Part shown: piece by piece, positions 1 through 60,795 of the stretch | How the letters are laid out: each line of letters opens with the position of its first letter | Position numbering within the stretch: the stretch's first letter is position 1 | Source: a virus | Length of the DNA: 60,795 bases | Virus record (IMG/VR): IMGVR_UViG_3300012078_000002 | Location: 1-60,795 of that record | Reading direction: 5' to 3' (one strand) | Notes under the pieces: model-generated | What the model was told of the DNA's origin: nothing | What the model saw: the letters and a program-made list of their open reading frames with translations, nothing else | Database searches by the model: none | Program-made: the position numbers and the translations under genes

Positions 1-351
1 GAGCTTCCCCGCATCTCGCCGACATTGGAGCTTTCCCACATCACGCCGACATTGGAGCTTTCCCACATCACGCCGACATTGGAGCTTTCCCACATCACGC
101 CGACATTGGAGCTTTCCCACATCTCGCCGACATTGGAGCTTTCCCACATCACGCCGACATTGGAGCTTTCCCACATCACGCCGACATTGGAGCTTCCCCG
201 CATCACGCCGACATTGGAGCTTCCCCGCATCACGCCGACATTGGAGCTTCCCCACATCACGCCGACATTGGAGCTTTCCCACATCACGCCGACATTGGAG
301 CTTTCCCACATCTCGCCGACATTGGAGCTTCCCCGCATCTCGCCGACATTG
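1..351. repeat. 27-bp tandem repeat array, 13 units (window-start part)
   Basis: GAGCTTTCCCACATCACGCCGACATTG repeats head to tail from base 1 to 351. Units differ only at unit positions 7 (T/C), 11 (A/G) and 16 (A/T). The array decays at 352. Confidence 0.97.
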
Positions 352-758
352 GAGCTTTCAAGAAAAACTTTAACATCATTACAGAGCTTTTTGACCTCAC
401 ACCGTTTTAATCGATAATAACCACTTGTCAATGCCTCGATCTTCTGATCAACCAAAACATGAACTTTCCACCATGCGCAAACGCTCTCCCTAAAAATACG
501 TTCGTATTCGCTCTTGTCAAACCATTCAGGAACTATGTCCTGATCTACCACAAAACACCAGTCTTCCGGATACTCTTCCGGGCTAACCCACCATTCGCCA
601 TTGTTCGGGATTAACTCGGCCCGTACAAATGTTTTGGATGCGCCTATGTAGCTATCTTCAATTCCAAGCGATTCCAACAAGTCTGTATGGCTTTCGTTCT
701 CTCCCTCGGCTATAACTGTTTTGTTTTTTAAGATAATTCCAGATTTAAAATTACACAT
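1..758 (-). CDS. Tandem-repeat protein, N-terminal part (gene leaves the window at base 1 and continues at 60795)
   Basis: Absent from the ORF track because it has no stop in the window. ATG at 758 follows AGGAGAGAAGAC. Translation: MCNFKSGIILKNKTVIAEGENESHTDLLESLG...KVFLE, then SSNVG[V/E]M[W/R][E/G] nonapeptides. Same codon phase as ORF 60408..60794. Confidence 0.8.
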   Translation of the reverse strand, partial: MCNFKSGIILKNKTVIAEGENESHTDLLESLGIEDSYIGASKTFVRAELIPNNGEWWVSPEEYPEDWCFVVDQDIVPEWFDKSEYERIFRESVCAWWKVHVLVDQKIEALTSGYYRLKRCEVKKLCNDVKVFLESSNVGEMRGSSNVGEMWESSNVGVMWESSNVGVMWGSSNVGVMRGSSNVGVMRGSSNVGVMWESSNVGVMWESSNVGEMWESSNVGVMWESSNVGVMWESSNVGVMWESSNVGEMRGS

Positions 759-773
759 GTCTTCTCTCCTTTT

Positions 774-1182: not shown

Positions 1183-2115
1183 CTACCCTATAGCCATGAG
1201 ATAACTCATTGCCTTGTCGCTGTCCCTGTTTTCCATCTCGTCCACTATATGCGAATATACATTCAACGTCGTTGTCAGATTTGAATGTCCCAATCTCTTC
1301 GATATGCTTAGCATGGACACTCCTGCAAATATAAGCAGTGATGCATGTGTGTGCCGTAGGGAATGAATAGATATCACTGTAATTCCGGCTTTTTCACATA
1401 ATTTTTCCAGATGGTCATTTGAAGTGGCGTTAAACATTCTTCCGGTCACAAGAACCGGCATGTCCGGTTCCATCCCTATTACAAGGCGGCTAAAAGTTTC
1501 TGCGGTTCTTGGGTCTATTTCTATAACCCTTTTTGATGATACGTTCTTTGTCGGAATAAAGCCCCCTTCTTTAGCCTTATAATTCCACGTCTTATTAATG
1601 CTGAGTTTTCTTTTTTCAAAGTCAAAATCAGCCGGTGTAACTCCCAACGCCTCCGCGTATCTCAAACCGGTTTTTGCGATCAGAAAAATAATCCAATCTT
1701 GATTCACTCCGTGCGTAAGGTCTAAGCTGTACATTAGGCGCTGCAATTCCTGTTGACTTAGCCATTTTTCTTTTTTCTTTGACGGCTCTTTTCCAACTAT
1801 TACTACTTTCTTCGTGGGGTCCCTGACAATAATTCCATCGTCAAACGCATCTCTAATGCTGGCGCGAAGATGTGTGTGGAAATCGCTGACTGTCTGTTTT
1901 TCATGCGTCTTCCCGTACTCGCTTATAATTATTTGGTACATTCTGCGATCCAGACTATCAAGGGTGACGTCAGGAGCAATTTCCATGAGCCGCTGATGGG
2001 TCATAATGTATTTTTGCAGAGTACACTTACTTACCACCCCGCGCTTATAGGTATTAACCCAATCCAGAAAATAAGCTTGAAAAGGCATCTTTTTATTCAT
2101 GTTCTTCGTCCGCAT
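1183..2115 (-). CDS. tyrosine recombinase / phage integrase family (second copy in this genome)
   Basis: C-terminal catalytic signature IHSLRHTHASLL...RLGHSNLTTTLNVYSHI (R, H-x-x-R, H, Y). GGAGGGAG lies before the ATG. Confidence 0.9.
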   Translation of the reverse strand: MRTKNMNKKMPFQAYFLDWVNTYKRGVVSKCTLQKYIMTHQRLMEIAPDVTLDSLDRRMYQIIISEYGKTHEKQTVSDFHTHLRASIRDAFDDGIIVRDPTKKVVIVGKEPSKKKEKWLSQQELQRLMYSLDLTHGVNQDWIIFLIAKTGLRYAEALGVTPADFDFEKRKLSINKTWNYKAKEGGFIPTKNVSSKRVIEIDPRTAETFSRLVIGMEPDMPVLVTGRMFNATSNDHLEKLCEKAGITVISIHSLRHTHASLLIFAGVSMLSISKRLGHSNLTTTLNVYSHIVDEMENRDSDKAMSYLMAIG

Positions 2116-2710
2116 GGCTCCCTCCTCTAAAAAATATCCCTAATTCTCTTTCTAACTCTTCGCTGTGCTCCATCTTGTATACTCCGCTAAATTTCAAAAA
2201 ATCAGCACTGTCGTTACGGATAAAGTACACGTCTTTGACTTTTTGTTCCAATGAATCGCCGTGGATGATTACGCCGCACATTCCCCGGATTGCCATATTA
2301 AAAATCAAAAACGGTACCGCTCGATCTGATAATTCTTCAACTTGGTACCAGTATGTCCGGGGATCGTAACGGGCCGGTCCTATACGCATCCTCTGCTCAT
2401 TCCATTTTTGAATCAAAATTCCACCCGTACCAGCTGCACATTCAAAGTACGTACTTCCTCCAGTAAGCTGTGCAAGTAATCTTGATACACTCATTGGCGT
2501 AAAATCCTGTTTTTTTACCTTCCTGTCCGAATGCTCGCTTTCGAAATATTCCGAAAACCATTCATAGCCCATCCTTGTTTCGTGTTCCAAAAACGCACAA
2601 AATAACTCCTCGCGCTTTTCGGTGTCAAGCATATACGCAAGCATTTCTTGTGGTGCCTGATAGCTCTCTGTGATTCCCAGCAACTCATTTATTTTCTTGT
2701 TTGTTAGCAT
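2093..2710 (-). CDS. N6-adenine DNA methylase-like SAM-binding protein, catalytic motif IV not detectable
   Basis: HsdM/gamma-class-like motifs DFTPMSVSRLLAQL, FECAAGTGG and FLIFNMAIRGM..HGDSL are present. No (D/N/S)PP(Y/F/W) occurs anywhere in the 205 aa. Confidence 0.6.
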   Translation of the reverse strand: MLTNKKINELLGITESYQAPQEMLAYMLDTEKREELFCAFLEHETRMGYEWFSEYFESEHSDRKVKKQDFTPMSVSRLLAQLTGGSTYFECAAGTGGILIQKWNEQRMRIGPARYDPRTYWYQVEELSDRAVPFLIFNMAIRGMCGVIIHGDSLEQKVKDVYFIRNDSADFLKFSGVYKMEHSEELERELGIFFRGGSHADEEHE

Positions 2711-5339: not shown

Positions 5340-5562
5340 AAGAATTTAGCGCTATGTATTTTGTCAATCAATTCATGCAGTTCGTTTTTGAGACTATCCA
5401 CGTATACACACCCCTTTCACTGTCAGCAAGCCAGATATTCATTACAGATTTGCCGATGTGTATATTATAACTGCACGCCAACATCATGTCAACAGGAAAA
5501 TAGAACACAGGTTCGACTTATTTCAAAGTTATTCGACAAATAGAAAGGGAGGTAATCAAATA

Positions 5563-6618
5563 ATGCCAGCATACAAAGATGAAGCCAGAAAAACGTGGTA
5601 CTGCAAATTCTCTTATACTGACTGGACGGGAAAGCAGCGGCAGAAGTTAAAGCGCGGTTTCCCATCGAAGAAAGAAGCCGCTGCTTGGGAGCGTAACTTT
5701 TTAGAACGGCAGCAGGGAAACCCCGATATGACCTTCCAGACCCTTTGTGCGCTCTACATGGAAGATATCACCATGCACCTCAAGGAATCCACGGTAGACG
5801 GCAAGGAGCATCGTATCAGAAACCACATACTGCCTTATTTCGGGGATAAGCGAGTGAACGAAATCAAGCCCGCCGATATAAGGAAGTGGCAGGGGATTAT
5901 AATCGAAAAAGAATTGAGTCCGACTTATCAAAGGTTGTTAAACGGGAACCTTAATACTATTTTTAATTTTGCGAAAAGGTATTATGGACTAATTGCTAAT
6001 CCGTGTGCGCCGGTAAAGACTATAGGCAAAGCAAAAGCAGGGCGCATGGAGTTTTGGACACAGTCCGAACTTGTTGCTTTTCTTGATTACACAAAAGACA
6101 CAGAAACTAAACTGGCCTTTCAGATACTTTTTTATACGGGCTTACGCTTCGGCGAAATGTTGGCGCTTAATCCGAACGCGGATATTGATTTGGAAAATGG
6201 AGCCCTAACGGTGTCAAAGACACACCACCGAAAACGCGGGAAGGATATAATCACGTCCCCAAAAACAGACAACGGAAACCGCGTTGTTATGTTGCCGTCG
6301 TTTTTGGTTGAACTAATAGGGGACTACATGAGTCATATCTATGATATTCAATCCAGAGAACGACTATTTCTATTCTCACGCAACAAACTCAGAAGAGCCA
6401 TGGAAAGGGGATGTCGACAATCCGGCGTCAAGCGCATTCGGCTGCATGATATCAGACATAGTCATGTGTCTATGCTCATAGAAATGGGGTTTTCACCTTG
6501 GTTAATAGCTGAAAGGATTGGCGACACTGTCGATATGGTCAATAGCATCTATGGGCACTTATATCCAAACAAGCACAAGGACGTGGCTGATGCGCTAAAT
6601 AAAATCGTATCAAAATAG
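5563..6618 (+). CDS. int: site-specific tyrosine integrase
   Basis: Start moved to MPAYKDEARKTWYCKF (arm-binding N-terminus) behind AAAGGGAGG. C-terminus RLHDIRHSHVSMLI...IYGHLY. Confidence 0.93.
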   Translation: MPAYKDEARKTWYCKFSYTDWTGKQRQKLKRGFPSKKEAAAWERNFLERQQGNPDMTFQTLCALYMEDITMHLKESTVDGKEHRIRNHILPYFGDKRVNEIKPADIRKWQGIIIEKELSPTYQRLLNGNLNTIFNFAKRYYGLIANPCAPVKTIGKAKAGRMEFWTQSELVAFLDYTKDTETKLAFQILFYTGLRFGEMLALNPNADIDLENGALTVSKTHHRKRGKDIITSPKTDNGNRVVMLPSFLVELIGDYMSHIYDIQSRERLFLFSRNKLRRAMERGCRQSGVKRIRLHDIRHSHVSMLIEMGFSPWLIAERIGDTVDMVNSIYGHLYPNKHKDVADALNKIVSK

Positions 6619-9950: not shown

Positions 9951-10355
9951 TTATTTCATTCTGTCAAGCTTCTCGCGATATGAATTTGCCGGAGTACCTG
10001 TCTGCCGAGTGGGGAAAGACTGGCTTGCGCTGAAATTAGATGGCGCTTGTCTATATTGCGATTCCTGGAATCGATCTTTTATTTTATTGAGACTTAAGCC
10101 GTTGCTTGATAGAATGCCATTTACAGCTATTTTGACGGCGGGATTTCGGTCCAGTATGGTCGATATCCTGTTAACCATGGGTGCGCCCCCAACGGCATCA
10201 ATGGCTCTGTACAATCCCTCTTCGCTGCTACCAAACTGCTTTGCGCCCTGGATGGCCTGATCAAGCATCTGTTTGCTTTCGGGATTTGACTGTATCTTTG
10301 CCGCTGCGTTTTTGCTCACCTTGCTCACTGTTCTCACCAATGAATTTAGATCCAT
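9951..10355 (-). CDS. hypothetical protein (134 aa)
   Basis: ORF track. ATGGAGGAAAAAA precedes the ATG. Confidence 0.6.
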   Translation of the reverse strand: MDLNSLVRTVSKVSKNAAAKIQSNPESKQMLDQAIQGAKQFGSSEEGLYRAIDAVGGAPMVNRISTILDRNPAVKIAVNGILSSNGLSLNKIKDRFQESQYRQAPSNFSASQSFPTRQTGTPANSYREKLDRMK

Positions 10356-10683
10356 TTTTTTCCTCCATCTTTGTTATTTTGTCAGAAAGTTTTTGAATAG
10401 TAGCCAGAAGAGTCGCATTGATTTCCTGTTGCTGTATTGCCTGCTTTTGCAACAACTCTTCTGCTGACTTCGGCGGCACAATGTCGCCCAGCTCCACAAG
10501 GCGGTTGTAAAACCCCTCTGCCTTTGTTATGGCTTCGCTTAGCGTTGATTCCAGCTCGTTGCAATACTCAAGTGTGTGACCTATCAGGACCTGCTGGTTT
10601 GATTGAAATTCCAGGATATCCCTCCCGGCGATAACGCGGGTTGGATAACTGTTTATGGTCCCATTTTCAAAAGAATAATTCAT
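10261..10683 (-). CDS. hypothetical protein (140 aa)
   Basis: ORF track. AGGAGGGG upstream. Its 3' end overlaps the next gene by 95 nt. Confidence 0.6.
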   Translation of the reverse strand: MNYSFENGTINSYPTRVIAGRDILEFQSNQQVLIGHTLEYCNELESTLSEAITKAEGFYNRLVELGDIVPPKSAEELLQKQAIQQQEINATLLATIQKLSDKITKMEEKNGSKFIGENSEQGEQKRSGKDTVKSRKQTDA

Positions 10684-10844
10684 TCATGCCCCTCCTGTAA
10701 TCCCATAGATATTTCTCCAATCAATGCCAAAACATTTAGATTGTCCGCGCAATCAATGGATAAATAGAAATCAAACATATCCTCCGCTTCTGCCTCTTTG
10801 TATCCGATCCGCGTCATCCGGTCAACAAACTGCTTTTCACTCAT
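10680..10844 (-). CDS. hypothetical protein (54 aa)
   Basis: Hand-translated: MSEKQFVDRMTRIGYKEAEAEDMFDFYLSIDCADNLNVLALIGEISMGLQEGHE. ATGA overlap with the upstream gene and a 4-nt overlap (ATGA) with the downstream gene. Confidence 0.5.
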   Translation of the reverse strand: MSEKQFVDRMTRIGYKEAEAEDMFDFYLSIDCADNLNVLALIGEISMGLQEGHE

Positions 10845-11086
10845 ATAATTTTCCGTACCTCCGCCATAAAGTCACCCAGCGACACACCGTAGCTTCTGGC
10901 AACACTCTCGCCGCACTGAATACCGTTTTGCAGCATTGCTTTGAACCGCTCCCGTTGTGCGTCGCCCATGCCATTCACAAAGAGTCTGGCGCAGTTCTCG
11001 GCAGTGACTGAATGGCTATCGGTTTCTTTCTTTTTGCCGGCCGGTGCATTCTTGGATGCCGGTGGCTGAATTAAATTACTTACCAT
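10841..11086 (-). CDS. hypothetical protein (81 aa)
   Basis: Start moved to MVSNLIQPP behind GGGAGG. Confidence 0.5.
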   Translation of the reverse strand: MVSNLIQPPASKNAPAGKKKETDSHSVTAENCARLFVNGMGDAQRERFKAMLQNGIQCGESVARSYGVSLGDFMAEVRKII

Positions 11087-11234
11087 CTCCAAACCTCCCG
11101 TAAGCCATGCTAAGGACGATGCATGCAGCTTCAATAAAATCCTTGCTGAAATGCTTCTTTTCCTTGGCTTCCTTGATTGCGTCAAGCGTCATTTCTGTTA
11201 AATCTGTCAAGGCTTCGTCTAATTTGTTAATCAC
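11076..11234 (-). CDS. hypothetical protein (52 aa, GTG start)
   Basis: ACAGGAGG, 7 nt, then GTG. The ATG at 11258 given in the track has no SD. Confidence 0.45.
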   Translation of the reverse strand: MINKLDEALTDLTEMTLDAIKEAKEKKHFSKDFIEAACIVLSMAYGRFGDGK

Positions 11235-11349
11235 GCTGAAACCTCCTGTCACGTTCATTTCTTATATGGTAATTTTAAGGGATTTAGGGGAAAGAAAAGC
11301 ATTTGAATAATGCTTATAAAGTTTGGAAAAAGTGTTAGAAAAATGCAAT

Positions 11350-11382
11350 AAAAAAAGAGACCTCCTACATTAAGGAAGTCCC
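11350..11382 (-). terminator. intrinsic terminator
   Basis: The minus strand reads GGGACTTCC-ttaatgta-GGAGGTCTC (9 bp, two G-U pairs) followed by TTTTTTT. Confidence 0.7.
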
Positions 11383-11394
11383 TTGTGCCTGAAT

Positions 11395-11718
11395 CTATTT
11401 CATTTTTCTCTTGCCAGCGTTTGCCGGATATAGTACGACTGGCAAGCCGTCCGGCTGATTCTTGAAAAAGGCAGAATTTCTATAGTCCAGGGTATACCCA
11501 TTATCAAGGGCGAACTTGGCGCAGTCGGGATACTTTTCAATGTGTGCCGTTACCCTACCAGCAAAAAGAATATATCCGTTTTTGTCGTAATCAGCGCTCT
11601 TTAATTCGTCAAGACTTTCTGAAATGCAATCCAGAATATTTTTTAACACCAGATTTTCCAGTTCTAATTTTTCCATCCTCGTCATTTCGTCTCCTTTCGC
11701 TTCGCTCTTATTTTTCAT
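11395..11718 (-). CDS. hypothetical protein (107 aa)
   Basis: ORF track. ATGA overlap with the upstream small ORF. Confidence 0.65.
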   Translation of the reverse strand: MKNKSEAKGDEMTRMEKLELENLVLKNILDCISESLDELKSADYDKNGYILFAGRVTAHIEKYPDCAKFALDNGYTLDYRNSAFFKNQPDGLPVVLYPANAGKRKMK

Positions 11719-11846
11719 GACACCTTACTGCTCTTCTGTGTGTATACGCTTTTTACAAGAATATATACGCGCCTCACAAAAGTATCACTGCCAATTTTAT
11801 CTAAGTAATCCACGATTGATTTAATATACGTTTCGCGTTCGGTCAT
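11715..11846 (-). CDS. small protein, paralog 2 (43 aa)
   Basis: MTERETYIKSIVDYLDKIGSDTFVRRVYILVKSVYTQKSSKVS. GGAGGTAA upstream. ATGA overlaps on both sides. Confidence 0.5.
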   Translation of the reverse strand: MTERETYIKSIVDYLDKIGSDTFVRRVYILVKSVYTQKSSKVS

Positions 11847-11968
11847 AATTTTTTACCTCCTCCGCACATGCTTCTCACAAAGTAGTACGCGCACCTTGTC
11901 AGTGTCACATTATTAGTTCTCTTTAATATTTCCATAATTAACTTGATGTACTCCTTATGTTCTGCCAT
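11843..11968 (-). CDS. small protein, paralog 1 (41 aa)
   Basis: MAEHKEYIKLIMEILKRTNNVTLTRCAYYFVRSMCGGGKKL. GGGAGAT upstream. Confidence 0.45.
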   Translation of the reverse strand: MAEHKEYIKLIMEILKRTNNVTLTRCAYYFVRSMCGGGKKL

Positions 11969-11983
11969 GATTTATATCTCCCT

Positions 11984-12802
11984 TCATCTCTGCACGCCGT
12001 ATATGGCCTGATGTTTTTTTACTATTCCTTCAAAAATCTGCCGCAATTGCTTATCTTTGCTGATAACATCCATCTTTGTCAATGTTTTTGCTTCGGTTTT
12101 AGTAGCTCCTCGCCTCACCATATCTTTTCTGCGACGGATTAAGCGGCTGCCCAATAAGATGCCGGAACTTTCCTCCAGTTCTTTGTATATCATTCCCCGG
12201 AACTTGACCGGGCTTAAATGATATGTCGCTACCATCACATTGATTGCGCCGTTCATATCAGCACTCCAGTGGTCAATGCTCGGGTTTGCAAACACTTTCA
12301 AAGTGGTTTCCAGCTTCGTCGCTGATTCCTGCGCTGTCTGCTCAATAACGGCAAGGCGCTGGTCTTGGATTTCCAGCAGTTGTCCCTGCGCTTCCAACTT
12401 TCGTTCAAGTTCTACCGTGTTCCGCGCCATTTGCAACATCATCTCGGCTTGTGTAAGCTGCGGGAGATTATAGCCTCCTTGTTTGCGGATGGCCGGAAGT
12501 ACTTCGGCGGTGACCCAACGCTTGAATTTCTTGGCGCTGGGCAATTCACTCATGATGACAAGGGCATACATGCCGGATTCATTAATGAGAATTGTATCGA
12601 TTGTTTTACTGATACTCTGCGGATGAGGTATACCCCGTTTCAGGGTATCCTCTGAATCCACATGCCGCACCACAGCGTCATAAGGCTTTACGTAACCCAA
12701 GGCCAGCGCGATATCCCGCCCTACAAACCATGCTTCATTATCAATTTCTACTGTTCTAACTTCCCCAAATTCTGGATTATTAAAAATCTGTAATTCATTC
12801 AT
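11984..12802 (-). CDS. BRO-N domain protein (prophage antirepressor-like)
   Basis: MNELQIFNNPEFGEVRTVEIDNEAWFVGRDIALALGY...NESGMYALVIMSELPSAKKFKRWVTAEVLPAIRK is a typical Bro-N domain. AAGGAGG upstream. Confidence 0.8.
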   Translation of the reverse strand: MNELQIFNNPEFGEVRTVEIDNEAWFVGRDIALALGYVKPYDAVVRHVDSEDTLKRGIPHPQSISKTIDTILINESGMYALVIMSELPSAKKFKRWVTAEVLPAIRKQGGYNLPQLTQAEMMLQMARNTVELERKLEAQGQLLEIQDQRLAVIEQTAQESATKLETTLKVFANPSIDHWSADMNGAINVMVATYHLSPVKFRGMIYKELEESSGILLGSRLIRRRKDMVRRGATKTEAKTLTKMDVISKDKQLRQIFEGIVKKHQAIYGVQR

Positions 12803-33577: not shown

Positions 33578-34231
33578 TTAAATTAAATAAACCCCGTTTT
33601 CGGCGGCTTCTGTTTTAATCCTTATCGCATCCTGTGTGCTTCCTGCTTTTCTTGCGGCAGTAAGTTGGCTTACATAATCCGGCTTTTCACCGGCTCCTGC
33701 TGGCGGCGTAGCCACTCCCGCTCCGGTAGTGGTAGTTGTCCCGAATACGTCGGCATAGCTTTCCTTGACCGATTTTGTCAGATCGTCATAATTGGACACA
33801 ACGCCATCTTTGTACTCGGCTTTTGTTACATCAACCTCTTTCAGCAGCAGCTTGACAAGTTTCTGATTTGCGCCGTCTTTGAGTAATCGCGTTTCGATAT
33901 CTGCCGTGATTGCCGACGTGGTTTTTTCCGATTCGACGTTGGTTTTGTAATCGCTGTATTCTTTTTCCTTGGCCGCGATATCAGCATCGTACTTGGTTTG
34001 CAAATCCTCAAATTTCTGCTTGTATGTATCCGCGTCGGCAGATTTTCCTTGCAGATCTTTGTTTTCGGCTTCCAGTTCGATGATTCTGTCCGTTTTTTTG
34101 CTATACTGCTCTTTTGGCACGAACTCCTTGCCCTGCTCGGCCTTAATTTCTTTTTCGATTGCCTTCAAGGTCTTGTCCATAATCTCTACCCCTTCCGGCA
34201 AGTTGTCTTTGATGATTGCTAAAATATCCAT
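33578..34231 (-). CDS. scaffolding protein (GP20-like)
   Basis: Helical, acidic, K/E-rich. Lies upstream of the capsid gene. AGGAGGAG upstream. Confidence 0.75.
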   Translation of the reverse strand: MDILAIIKDNLPEGVEIMDKTLKAIEKEIKAEQGKEFVPKEQYSKKTDRIIELEAENKDLQGKSADADTYKQKFEDLQTKYDADIAAKEKEYSDYKTNVESEKTTSAITADIETRLLKDGANQKLVKLLLKEVDVTKAEYKDGVVSNYDDLTKSVKESYADVFGTTTTTGAGVATPPAGAGEKPDYVSQLTAARKAGSTQDAIRIKTEAAENGVYLI

Positions 34232-34241
34232 GTGCGTACTC

Positions 34242-34404
34242 CTCCTGGCTTTTATAGCGGTTCCACGCTAGAGTATTTGGTCTCTTAGTTGCTGTTTTGC
34301 AATTCTCGCTCCTGGCTTTTATAGCGGTTCCACGCTAGAGTATTTGGTCTCTTAGTTGCTGTTTTGCAATTCTCGCTCCTGGCTTTTATAGCGGTTCCAC
34401 GCTA
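34242..34404. repeat. 67-bp direct tandem repeat, 2.4 copies
   Basis: CTCCTGGCTTTTATAGCGGTTCCACGCTAGAGTATTTGGTCTCTTAGTTGCTGTTTTGCAATTCTCG at 34242..34308 and 34309..34375 (identical). A partial third copy occupies 34376..34404. Confidence 0.95.
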
Positions 34405-52636: not shown

Positions 52637-53923
52637 TTAATCAAACGGCGTAGGTTCTCGGGCTGGGGAAAACTCTTCTTCCTTCACTGGTTCCCCGGTT
52701 TCTTCAAACCGCATAACCGAACCGTTAAAGCGCATAGCCACTTTGCCGGTCTCGCCCTGCCGCTGCTTCTCAATCTTGATTGCTTTCTTGCCCCCGTCCG
52801 TCTTGCTTGTATTCCACATCAGCAATATATTACTGGCATCCTGCTCAATGTCCCCTGATTCCCTCAACTCTGCCATAGTCGGCTCCTTGGTCTCTCTTGC
52901 CTCGCTCTGGCGGTTCAACTGTGACAGCACAACAATAGGCGTGTTGATCTCCATTGCCAGCCCCTTCATGGCCCTAGAGATAGCGCCCACTTCGGCGGCC
53001 CGGTTCGGGTACCACGTATCTGATCTAAGCAGCTGTAAATAATCAATGACGATTACTTCAAAGTCGTTGTGTCGGCATTCGTTCCTGATCTCTGATATCT
53101 TTTTTGGGCCGCTGCTGATCCAGACGTTAAACCCTGTTAGGACTTTGTTTGCTCGGCTCACCCTTTCCTGTTCGTCGTTCAGGTAGTTTTTTGCCCGTCG
53201 AATCCGTTTCAAGCCTATCCCTGTCTGGCTGGAAAGCATACGCTCATAGACCTGCTTGTCCATCATCTCAAGGTTATAAAAAGCTACCTTCTTGCCCGAC
53301 AGGGCAATGCTGGCTATTACCTGTGTCACAAAAGCTGATTTTCCTACCGCCGGTCTTGCGCCGATTACTGTGATATCTCCCCCCTCAAGGCTGCCTATCA
53401 TATCATCAAGCCGGGGAAATCCGAATTTCACTCCGGTTTCTGGCAGATCAACAAAACACTTGTCCTTGTTTTCCTTGACGATCTGTGCCATCGGCTTGAG
53501 GTTGTTCTTTTCGCATCTTACCAAAGCTTCCAGGTCATTCAGCAAGGCCCCTATGGTCCCGTCAATACTACTTGGCACAATCTGCACGGAATTGATAATG
53601 CGTGACAGCATCTTGGCCTTGTGGTTATTAATCAACACATCAGCCGATCCCCGTATGGTTGCAGACGTAACGGTATTTTCCACGCATCCCTTGATGGTCC
53701 GAAACGTCGTATCGCTGTTATATCCAGACTCTCCCAGCCACTGGCAGAGATTAACCAAGCTCACCGGTTCGCCCATGTCGTAAGCCTTGATTATTTCAAA
53801 ATACGCTCTGGACAAGAGGTCGGTCTCAAACATTTCCGGTTTCAGATCGTCGTATATACCCTGCACGGTATTGATGTCCATCAGCAACGCCCCGATGATG
53901 GATTGTTCCGCCATTAGGCTCAT
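52637..53923 (-). CDS. dnaB: replicative DNA helicase (DnaB family)
   Basis: AEQSIIGALLMD N-terminus and Walker A GARPAVGKSAF. Start moved to MSLMAEQ (ATGA overlap with the upstream stop). Confidence 0.92.
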   Translation of the reverse strand: MSLMAEQSIIGALLMDINTVQGIYDDLKPEMFETDLLSRAYFEIIKAYDMGEPVSLVNLCQWLGESGYNSDTTFRTIKGCVENTVTSATIRGSADVLINNHKAKMLSRIINSVQIVPSSIDGTIGALLNDLEALVRCEKNNLKPMAQIVKENKDKCFVDLPETGVKFGFPRLDDMIGSLEGGDITVIGARPAVGKSAFVTQVIASIALSGKKVAFYNLEMMDKQVYERMLSSQTGIGLKRIRRAKNYLNDEQERVSRANKVLTGFNVWISSGPKKISEIRNECRHNDFEVIVIDYLQLLRSDTWYPNRAAEVGAISRAMKGLAMEINTPIVVLSQLNRQSEARETKEPTMAELRESGDIEQDASNILLMWNTSKTDGGKKAIKIEKQRQGETGKVAMRFNGSVMRFEETGEPVKEEEFSPAREPTPFD

Positions 53924-54672
53924 GTCTCGTCCTCCTGTACATAGTCCAATATTGATTTGTTTAAAAGGGTGTCGAAGTTTTTGTAAAATTCCAAGTCTTT
54001 CCCACCTGCCTCCTGTTCTCGTACATAGGCCCTTACGGCGATGTACATCTGACGGTTGGTCAGTTTGATTGTGCGGCCATTGATCTTCCGGCCCTTCAAC
54101 CATCCAAGGTAATGTTCGTAAGCTTTGGCTCTGCCTTTCTTCCTGGGGTATATCGCATATATGGTGGCGAAATCTTCTTCCCGCGTATCTGGTTTTTCGG
54201 ATTCAGAGTTTACTTGTTCGACGCCCGGCGAACAAAAGAGTTTTTTATTATCTTCTTTACATTCTTTCTTTCTAACATTCTTGTTAGTGTTCACTTGTTG
54301 TTCACTCGTTGTTCGCTCGTTGTTCACTTGTTGTTCAATTTGTTGTTCACTGCTTTGGTATTTACCCCAATTCGTCAAGGATATAAGCCGATTTTTGGTG
54401 CAAGTTTGTTGTTCAATCTGTTGTTCGATTTCGAACCGTTTCAGTACGCGTTGCACTTTGCTTTCGTTGATCAACAATTCAGCTGATATTGACTTCCTGC
54501 CGGTTATCAGCTGCCCCGGTTGCAGCTTTATCCTTGTTCCGTCAAATATCACATCTTGCTCGGCGTGGGTTGCATTAAGGAGTAAGTATATCCATATCGC
54601 TATGTGATCGGCATCCTTGCAAACTACCGGATTATTAAGCATTTGGCGGTGAATCTTTACGTATCCCTCCAT
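53920..54672 (-). CDS. replisome organiser / DnaD-like replication initiator
   Basis: N-terminal winged-helix-like YVKIHRQMLNNPVV...LITGRKSISAELLINESKVQRVLKRFE. Lies directly upstream of dnaB and contains the iteron array. Confidence 0.7.
   Translation of the reverse strand: MEGYVKIHRQMLNNPVVCKDADHIAIWIYLLLNATHAEQDVIFDGTRIKLQPGQLITGRKSISAELLINESKVQRVLKRFEIEQQIEQQTCTKNRLISLTNWGKYQSSEQQIEQQVNNERTTSEQQVNTNKNVRKKECKEDNKKLFCSPGVEQVNSESEKPDTREEDFATIYAIYPRKKGRAKAYEHYLGWLKGRKINGRTIKLTNRQMYIAVRAYVREQEAGGKDLEFYKNFDTLLNKSILDYVQEDET
54297..54428. repeat. iteron-like 9-mers GTTGTTC(A/G)(C/A), 7 copies (candidate origin)
   Basis: Copies start at 54297, 54308, 54319, 54330 and 54342 (11-12 bp phasing) and at 54408 and 54420, all inside the organiser gene. 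Confidence 0.6.
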
Positions 54673-60226: not shown

Positions 60227-60427
60227 TCACTGGACAAGCATCTTCCCGCATGATTTGCAGTAAGCATGTATATGATTATTCGTGCCACTTCTGGAAAACC
60301 GCATTGTACCGCCACATGTGCAAGTTATTTTTTCTTTACCCTCTTTCTCGGATTTTTCAATTAATTCAATAAATTGATTTAATTCCCTTATCTTTAATTG
60401 GATTGATTCATTCGCTTTTGCTTCCAT
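60227..60427 (-). CDS. zinc-ribbon protein (66 aa)
   Basis: CTCGG...CKSCGK. Start moved to MEAKANES. Overlaps the repeat-protein stop by 20 nt. Confidence 0.55.
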   Translation of the reverse strand: MEAKANESIQLKIRELNQFIELIEKSEKEGKEKITCTCGGTMRFSRSGTNNHIHAYCKSCGKMLVQ

Positions 60428-60795
60428 TTGCCGATTCCTCCGTTTTGTTTTCAAAAGCAATCATCTCAAATCTGTCAAGCGAATCTGCCGGAACCATGAC
60501 TTTGATTTTGGGATAATTTTTAAAGTCTCTGGCGGTGGAGCTTCCCCGCATCTCGCCGACATTGGAGCTTCCCCGCATCTCGCCGACATTGGAGCTTTCC
60601 CACATCACGCCGACATTGGAGCTTTCCCACATCACGCCGACATTGGAGCTTCCCCGCATCACGCCGACATTGGAGCTTCCCCGCATCTCGCCGACATTGG
60701 AGCTTTCCCACATCACGCCGACATTGGAGCTTTCCCACATCACGCCGACATTGGAGCTTTCCCACATCACGCCGACATTGGAGCTTTCCCACATC
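60408..60795 (-). CDS. Tandem-repeat protein, C-terminal part (enters the window at 60795)
   Basis: ORF 60408..60794 carries SSNVG[V/E]M[W/R][E/G] repeats, then SSTARDFKNYPKIKVMVPADSLDRFEMIAFENKTEESANGSKSE. Same phase as the ORF that leaves at base 1. Confidence 0.8.
   Translation of the reverse strand, partial: MWESSNVGVMWESSNVGVMWESSNVGVMWESSNVGEMRGSSNVGVMRGSSNVGVMWESSNVGVMWESSNVGEMRGSSNVGEMRGSSTARDFKNYPKIKVMVPADSLDRFEMIAFENKTEESANGSKSE
60538..60795. repeat. 27-bp tandem repeat array, 9.6 units (window-end part)
   Basis: Same unit as 1..351, beginning at 60538. The last unit is truncated after 15 nt by the window edge. Confidence 0.97.
60673..60795. repeat. 123-bp terminal direct repeat (identical to 1..123)
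   Basis: Unit-variant order (C-G-T unit, three T-A-A units, then the first 15 nt of the next unit) is the same at both ends. Read base by base. Confidence 0.9.

Follow-up and report, generated by a model that had tools for sequence, protein, structure and literature searches.

What does a gene encode when an assembler has cut it in two at its own repeats? IMG/VR virus record IMGVR_UViG_3300012078_000002, which we analysed over its whole length of 60,795 nucleotides (the window), carries a 27-bp tandem array at each end, at 1-359 (13.3 copies) and 60536-60795 (9.6 copies), with 96% matches by Tandem Repeats Finder. An earlier note, made from the letters alone, had proposed that a single minus-strand gene spans the junction. 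The sole exact suffix-prefix overlap of the window is 123 bp long and lies inside the array, and its removal leaves a circle of 60,672 bp. On this circle an intact open reading frame (ORF) runs from ATG 758 through base 1 to 60672 and on to a stop codon at 60408. Its 340-residue product consists of 134 non-repetitive residues, 18 units of nine residues, SSNVG[E/V]M[W/R][E/G], and a 44-residue tail, so the note's sum of 134 + 18x9 + 44 is reproduced exactly. We are nearly certain that this is a genuine protein-coding gene, and its relatives tie the same N-terminal domain to two unrelated mechanisms of hypervariation.

On the minus strand, the Shine-Dalgarno region read from the sequence (AGGAGAGAAGAC, 759..770) lies directly 5' of ATG 758. 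Alignments A1-A3 and AlphaFold delimit a conserved N-terminal alpha/beta domain (the N-domain), residues 1-100, encoded by 459..758 (-) and marked by MCxFKSGIILK ... SH ... FVRAEL ... VDQD.P.WF. About four degenerate 9-residue units follow (residues 101-134, 357..458, -; VLVDQKIEA, LTSGYYRLK, RCEVKKLCN and DVKVFLE), with predicted strands continuous with those of the array. Tandem Repeats Finder and translation place array units 1 to 13.2, of 27 bp each, at 1..356 (-), and in-frame arithmetic places units 13.2 to 18 at 60543..60672 (-) after circularisation; the 356 + 130 = 486 bp make up the 18 in-frame units. The bases at 60673..60795 duplicate bases 1-123 exactly and are assembly overlap, not extra sequence. 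Residues 297-340 and the stop codon, at 60408..60542 (-), comprise a degenerate last unit, SSTARDFKN, and a conserved C-terminal cap (YP.IK..V ... FEM...), as recognized from homologues and AlphaFold.

The join is real, and N-domain, repeat and tail form one ORF, because an independent assembly holds the gene internally. ENA contig ERZ27241879:k141_189225 (60,287 bp) matches the circularised window at 100% identity over 20.5 kb, apart from having one unit where the window has 18, and it carries N-domain, repeat and tail as an internal 187-aa ORF. The earlier note had named non-contiguous arrays as grounds for rejecting its proposal, and in this contig the flanks are joined. Its figure of 18 fared less well: the circularised window does contain 18 units, but copy number varies between alleles or with the assembly (1 to at least 27) and hence is not fixed. 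Because of the single-unit contig, and because the window circle closes on a 123-mer within the array, 18 is best taken as one allele or a lower bound. The value 123 would equal k-1 for k = 124, a property of the assembler, in which case a longer internal repeat would be collapsed in assembly. A 1-unit allele probably exists, since the single-unit contig needs 141-mers that span both flanks, and these, we infer, come from reads. Units 1 and 18 of the window do not differ (both EMRG), a state compatible with a simple collapse by recombination.

Long arrays in general are not artefacts. Complete genes with 15-27 units lie inside viral contigs (L002, 410 aa; L021, 351 aa; L007, 322 aa; L003, 320 aa; L004, 302 aa), and cultured isolates have long arrays as well, with two copies in Clostridium porci (337 and 325 aa) and a 322-aa product in Anaerotaenia torta DSM 100431. 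The array nevertheless breaks short-read assemblies: about 30 of 80 viral loci terminate within it, and N-gaps or frameshifts interrupt it in several genome assemblies. As a result, members of the family are often truncated or incorrect in databases, and circular viral genomes whose terminal repeat falls in such an array should be treated as uncertain in repeat number. Breaks, gaps or frameshifts of this kind were seen in L005, L006, L009, L010 and about 25 further viral loci, in L086, L091 and L095, and in P0034 and P0051; frameshifted database products switch to GKLPGRRDV, which is the +1 frame of the units. A phage about 93% identical to that of the window (JGI Ga0153998_1000001, L121/L125; 59,642 bp) likewise has both ends in the homologous array, with at least 13 and 2 units. 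The exact junction sequence of the window had no match in IMG/VR or the JGI metagenomes. Near-identical units (96%), present in 18 copies versus one between very close relatives, mark the array as a coding variable number tandem repeat (VNTR). A unit of 27 bp (9 codons) preserves the frame at every copy number, and the array does not show on/off phase variation by frameshift.

The homologues read the repeats in the same frame as the window, which bears out the minus-strand reading and answers the objection that the region might be noncoding or read on the other strand. The earlier note had pointed to uncharacterised Firmicutes proteins with a W/E/D-rich N-terminal domain and short beta-helix-like repeats, and more than 400 homologues with N-domain, variable 9-aa units and tail do exist. 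A search with the N-domain gave 409 proteins, each with the N-domain and 1-7 or more in-frame units, and the tail SSTARDFKNYP.IKI.V..G.FEMV is conserved in all of them. Their lengths step by 9 residues, and the comparison of repeat numbers that the note had called for gave a range of 1 to at least 27 units. Unit codon 4 appears, across lineages, as all four GTN codons and always encodes valine (331 synonymous pairwise differences, 0 nonsynonymous), codon 7 is always ATG, and codon 2 alternates between TCC and TCA. This pattern therefore indicates purifying selection on the protein and not on a DNA motif, and on codon usage Ser2, Val4 and Met7 are the putative structural positions under such selection.

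These results bear directly on whether the array could instead act as DNA, as origin iterons, a packaging site or a protein-binding array with an incidental ORF, or whether the gene could be an artefact of the junction. Tandem repeats in phage early regions can be origins, and both contig ends lie in an array at which many assemblies break. However, the frame is continuous from N-domain to tail in hundreds of homologues with differing codon usage, including all four GTN codons at Val4; an otherwise identical genome has a single unit; the independent contig spans the junction; and a better origin candidate, 11-bp iterons with an AT-rich tract, lies at 54288-54351 in a DnaD-like gene. A DNA-level element or an artefact is thus largely refuted, and we assign it a very low probability. 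Origin iterons in particular can be ruled out, as the array lies in an unrelated gene, is reduced to 1 unit in an identical genome, and candidate iterons are found elsewhere.

Variation within the arrays concentrates at three codons of the unit. Variation in the window array is confined to nucleotide columns 17, 22 and 26 of the 27, and all three changes are nonsynonymous (E/V, W/R and E/G). Over 46 loci, within-array variant codon types number 245 nonsynonymous versus 8 synonymous; unit codons 6, 8 and 9 account for 186 of the 245, Val4 for one and Met7 for none. When identical events are collapsed, 95 nonsynonymous and 5 synonymous types remain (expected synonymous fraction 0.19, p = 3e-5), and at codons 6, 8 and 9 the counts are 63 versus 0 (p = 2.4e-5). 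The bias recurs in every repeat flavour. The arrays are therefore rapidly homogenised (concerted evolution) with amino-acid diversity kept at three positions per unit. In Ga0153998_1000001 these three sites are dimorphic as well but combined differently (EMWG, VMRE, EMRE and others), an indication that the three polymorphisms persist across diverged lineages.

Could the rod simply be a passive spacer or scaffold, one that sets length or oligomerises in the manner of bactofilins, with unit number and variable residues reflecting slippage noise? Copy number does range from 1 to at least 27 without an obvious optimum, and the 1-unit allele in an otherwise identical genome implies that length may not be critical. 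Noise would not be expected to give a nonsynonymous excess at the same three unit positions in many lineages, however, and fusions of the N-domain to further variable or binding modules recur, among them a target of a diversity-generating retroelement (DGR). We consider a passive role unlikely.

AlphaFold2 offers a view of how the variable residues might be displayed. The full-length model, built with 99 sequences, has a mean predicted local distance difference test score (pLDDT) of 89.8 and a predicted template modelling score (pTM) of 0.76. Modelling had been proposed in the earlier note as a check for a solenoid, and the model indeed has one 5-residue strand per 9 residues from about residue 101 to 312, followed by a short helix. 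The repeat rod is thus predicted to be a beta-solenoid with one strand per unit. Strands at 101-103, 106-110, 114-118, 121-125 and 130-134 precede the array, so the solenoid would begin about four degenerate units ahead of the perfect repeats; the tail adds strands 299-305 and 308-312 and a helix at 315-320. Within the unit, the strand takes up positions 3-7 and the turn positions 8, 9, 1 and 2, an assignment read from the DSSP string only. Foldseek found no significant match to the full model in the PDB (E >= 0.5 for a resemblance to pentapeptide proteins), and almost every weak match is a beta-solenoid or beta-helix: pentapeptide proteins, designed beta-solenoids and tailspike-like helices.

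In the full model the N-domain has strands at 6-10, 14-16, 44-51 and 67-71 and helices at 24-30, 37-42 and 82-100. Modelled alone, it reaches a pLDDT of 93.8 and a pTM of 0.85. Foldseek gave no fold match in the PDB (best E 0.8, template modelling score < 0.31) and in BFVD matched only an unannotated fragment of the family; neither the full-protein profile nor the N-domain profile matched any PDB sequence (0 matches); and a Pfam scan of 68 N-domain sequences (E <= 1) returned no consistent family. On these models, the N-domain appears to be a new fold. Against PHROGs, the full protein had only a weak match in the repeat region, to phrog_4433, an entry without a function.

An exhaustive HMMER search with the N-domain profile recovered 1,740 representatives of 50% identity clusters at E <= 1e-3, 521 of them at <= 1e-10, and the domain almost always begins at residue 1. 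Alignments A1-A3, of which the window protein is the first sequence, have C2, S6, H24, D35, R46, E48, W67, Q73, P77 and W79 as invariant or near-invariant residues. We define here the unnamed MCxFKSG family, to which the window protein belongs, since C2, S6, H24, D35, FVRAEL, W67, VDQD and P.W are all present. We found no description of it in the literature on DUF6273, YdcK solenoids, hypervariable solenoid phage proteins or its sequence motifs. Where genome records name a host, it is Lachnospiraceae or their relatives.

Two of the conserved residues behave as a pair. Among 436 aligned sequences, 420 have both Cys2 and His24, 9 have neither, 1 has only the cysteine and 6 only the histidine (Fisher p = 3e-14). 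Given the specificity of methionine aminopeptidase, a cysteine right after the initiator methionine becomes the N-terminal residue once the methionine is removed. Because Cys2 and His24 are kept or lost together, the alignments suggest that they are a candidate catalytic dyad or metal site.

What follows the N-domain differs widely between family members. Some have Met-type 9-residue units as in the window, and others have different 9- and 8-residue solenoid flavours, some of them above the threshold of PF18836, the YdcK beta-solenoid (L061, 59.2 bits; P0249, 56.8 bits). P0273 joins the N-domain to genuine pentapeptide repeats (PF00805, 41.8 bits), and P0346 joins it to DUF4116-like repeats of about 23 residues, recognized by eye; these two proteins show the domain combined with many repeat scaffolds. 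P0313 (656 aa; L084 794-2764), from a single 4-kb contig at 3.4x coverage, has a degenerate N-domain without Cys2 and His24, about 30 solenoid units and a C-terminal ArdA domain (PF07275, 54.8 bits), and a second ArdA-like fragment lies upstream of it in L084.

The ArdA fusion and the pentapeptide repeats of P0273 raise the possibility that the protein is a DNA mimic, with a solenoid that imitates a duplex of adjustable length and blocks restriction enzymes or other defence proteins that bind DNA. Overall, the window protein is acidic (net -19, isoelectric point 4.7), and a place in the early operon suits an anti-restriction gene. Known DNA mimics, however, are far more acidic: the charge of the array is only about 0 to -1 per unit, and some long arrays are even slightly positive, such as that of L002 with +2 over 27 units. 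The ArdA fusion, moreover, is one contig, and no ArdA lies near the gene in any of the other loci checked. Nor is the lectin domain of the DGR-linked relatives a DNA mimic, and diversifying selection at three positions would be unexpected for a generic one. DNA mimicry in general is in our view quite unlikely. Strong mimicry is ruled out by the array charge, and adjacency to ArdA is ruled out as a general feature.

The most informative relatives are those in loci L056-L081, whose N-domains are 47-61% identical to that of the window (residues 1-93/103) and are followed by a DUF6273/C-type-lectin domain (L063 scores above the Pfam cut-off and L056 below it). The last ~30 residues of the lectin domain vary between otherwise identical proteins. 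A template repeat lies about 490 bp downstream, with 13-16 mismatches that are almost exclusively from a template A to any base, and it is followed by an Avd-sized ORF and a reverse transcriptase, which in L070 matches Pfam RVT_1 at 1e-13. Searches by tblastn with the L070 reverse transcriptase and Avd found both in 23 of 23 DGR-type loci and neither in the window or in any tandem-repeat locus. Judged by this arrangement, the L056-L081 proteins are bona fide DGR targets. Complete cassettes (target, Avd-sized ORF, template repeat and reverse transcriptase) occur in L056-L081, for example at L070 6001-8492, and also in L116/L117 at 10001-12498; they sit in Lachnospiraceae elements of 90-240 kb.

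Such relatives make it conceivable that the protein is an adhesin or receptor-binding accessory displayed on the virion, whose N-domain docks on capsid or tail while the rod or the lectin domain binds host-surface or mucosal ligands. DUF6273 DGR targets have been read as receptor-binding or Hoc-like proteins (bioRxiv 10.1101/2024.10.15.618418; PMC11792537), and the same N-domain heads bona fide members of that class. Beta-helices are also common in tail spikes, which are among the weak Foldseek matches. The genomic setting argues otherwise. The gene occupies an early lytic slot in the window, in Dulem virus 35 and at further loci: the lysogeny switch directly precedes it, and genes for recombination and replication lie beside it. 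The DGR-type homologues, too, lie among non-structural genes: about 10 kb away are an integrase, a repressor and a PemK toxin, the neighbours are unannotated genes, a C5 methylase, or a GmrSD-like and a radical-SAM gene, and no structural genes were found near the homologues examined. In addition, the window protein lacks a signal peptide and does not resemble known virion-attachment domains. We therefore judge a virion-displayed adhesin decidedly unlikely. A non-structural neighbourhood is in itself unusual for phage DGR targets.

The window gene is approximately the ninth of a minus-strand early operon that diverges from a CI-like repressor and the canonical integrase (5458-6618). Before it come an antirepressor, small ORFs, a Myb/GcrA-like protein, a small methyltransferase-like protein, a second tyrosine recombinase (310 aa, 1183-2115, -; Pfam Phage_integrase) and two small ORFs. 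After it come two small ORFs, an AAA/SMC-like ATPase, RecT, a DUF3799 exonuclease, RusA, a DnaD-like loader and DnaB. The earlier note's placement of the gene between a tyrosine recombinase and the recombination module is therefore correct. In the complete genome of Dulem virus 35 (PP511522.1), a 250-aa homologue annotated as hypothetical occupies the same slot after the cro-side start. L008 has the downstream AAA-RecT-exonuclease module in common with the window, whereas at other loci only markers farther away are shared, and the genes directly beside this one are not conserved across loci. By this gene order, the gene would be a typical accessory gene in a fixed slot.

The gene is one of the early genes of a temperate phage of Lachnospiraceae-type Clostridia, and its protein has two modules. 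We hypothesize that the constant N-domain of about 100 residues is the effector or anchor, and that the predicted solenoid rod, running from degenerate units through the perfect array to the cap, is a variable ligand-binding surface that aims or anchors it. Because its 27-bp units are almost identical in DNA, the array expands and contracts, presumably by replication slippage or unequal recombination, and the frame is kept throughout. The target would be an intracellular, fast-evolving factor of the host or of a rival phage, involved in defence or counter-defence; an intracellular partner is most likely given the early lytic slot among variable accessory genes, the lack of a signal peptide and the lack of structural-gene neighbours. 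Because the same N-domain precedes a DGR-diversified lectin domain, two diversification mechanisms apparently serve the same purpose.

We hold this recognition module, a constant N-domain aimed by a fast-diversifying rod in early phage-host or phage-phage conflict, as a tentative explanation in which our confidence stops somewhat short of even. A broader proposal is more speculative, and we think it possible but on balance doubtful: intracellular, antibody-like recognition in phages and mobile elements of gut Clostridia, in which a constant domain of novel fold, possibly a Cys-His enzyme, is combined with interchangeable hypervariable modules and is diversified either by tandem-unit turnover, as in the window gene, or by a DGR, as in its relatives.

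Several points weigh against the recognition module. Searches with the full protein against Pfam, NCBIfam and PADLOC gave nothing meaningful and indicate neither a function nor a partner. Most DGR targets described to date belong to the virion or the cell surface, which would speak for a role outside the cell. Shared descent makes the tallies of variant codons and Cys/His states non-independent, AlphaFold confidence may be inflated for perfect repeats, and the count of 18 units rests on short-read circularisation within the array.

Comparison with known systems helps to place the window protein. It resembles DGR targets with a C-terminal C-type-lectin/DUF6273 variable region (Mtd-like small targets of gut phages) in its homologous N-terminal ~100 residues (47-61% identity), in a hypervariable module C-terminal to a constant domain, and in a setting of Lachnospiraceae mobile elements. 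However, it has no lectin domain, and the window has no template repeat or reverse transcriptase and no pair of variable region and template repeat differing at adenines. Its variation is tandem-unit turnover with point differences at three codons per unit, not adenine mutagenesis. As for YdcK-type proteins (PF18836), sister proteins with the same N-domain have 9-residue units (GNATVNKVY) above threshold, which by eye align with those of the window as [GDE][NS][AS][TQN]V..[VIM][YWC]. PF18836 itself, with a gathering score of 30 bits, had no match in the window protein (E <= 1) or in the Met-type relatives L002, L007 and L021, so kinship is suggested by common architecture and period, not by a significant match.

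RTX and pentapeptide solenoids likewise have a short period (9 or 5 residues) in which each unit contributes one strand and one turn to a parallel beta-solenoid; the weak Foldseek matches include pentapeptide proteins, and one family member has true pentapeptide repeats. The period of the window array equals that of the RTX beta-roll, but the unit SSNVG[EV]M[WR][EG] lacks the calcium-binding motif GGXGXD. Against a pentapeptide protein (PF00805) stand the period of 9, the absence of an A(D/N)LXX motif and the absence of a Pfam match in the window protein. Neither class gave a significant sequence or fold match, and the window protein is predicted to be cytoplasmic and early, not a secreted toxin. 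An ArdA domain (PF07275) was not matched in the window protein and occurs only as the C-terminal fusion in P0313. Besides DGR targets, a further analogy for how the protein would work is with leucine-rich-repeat proteins and variable lymphocyte receptors, transcription activator-like effectors and coding VNTR loci, which also consist of near-identical units with few hypervariable positions and change in number or order by recombination or slippage; Altae-Tran et al., 2020 (PMC10392669) supply the conceptual frame of hypervariable repeat binders. Repeat type and fold nonetheless differ, the window gene is phage-encoded and early, and there is no on/off phase switching. Of these classes, the window protein has the defining features of a coding VNTR only, and not those of a DGR target or of a PF18836, pentapeptide, RTX or ArdA protein.

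The family is large (1,740 clusters), unannotated and confined to gut Clostridia and their phages, and its N-domain is apparently a new fold with a candidate Cys-His active site. That VNTR- and DGR-diversified proteins have one domain in common is unexpected. It amounts to a natural experiment in which one conserved domain is tied to two unrelated hypervariation mechanisms, and it suggests that an early phage function is under strong and ongoing diversifying selection. If the broader proposal is true, DGRs and coding VNTRs would be two alternative ways of driving one arms-race function of early infection, and the DGR-linked relatives would rank with the first DGR-target families of phages that are non-structural and cytoplasmic. 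Should the partner be identified, a new mechanism of anti-defence or exclusion may emerge in a clinically relevant microbiome clade. A 9-residue solenoid with three programmable positions per unit is also a potential engineerable binding scaffold.

Three further features of the window deserve mention. Within 1183-2710 (-), which takes in two genes, the 205-aa methyltransferase-like protein corresponds only to the N-terminal S-adenosylmethionine-binding part of N6_Mtase and is a near-full-length match to phrog_1071; its ORF overlaps the start of the second tyrosine recombinase, an odd pairing. At 54288-54351, inside ORF 53920-54672 (-), which encodes the DnaD-like loader just upstream of DnaB, about six 11-bp direct repeats of (A/G)GTGAACAACA precede an AT-rich tract and are likely a replication origin inside the initiator gene. 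Lastly, a perfect 67-bp tandem repeat (2.4 copies, 100% identical) occupies the intergenic positions 34242-34404, just upstream of a head-scaffold-like gene at 33578-34231.

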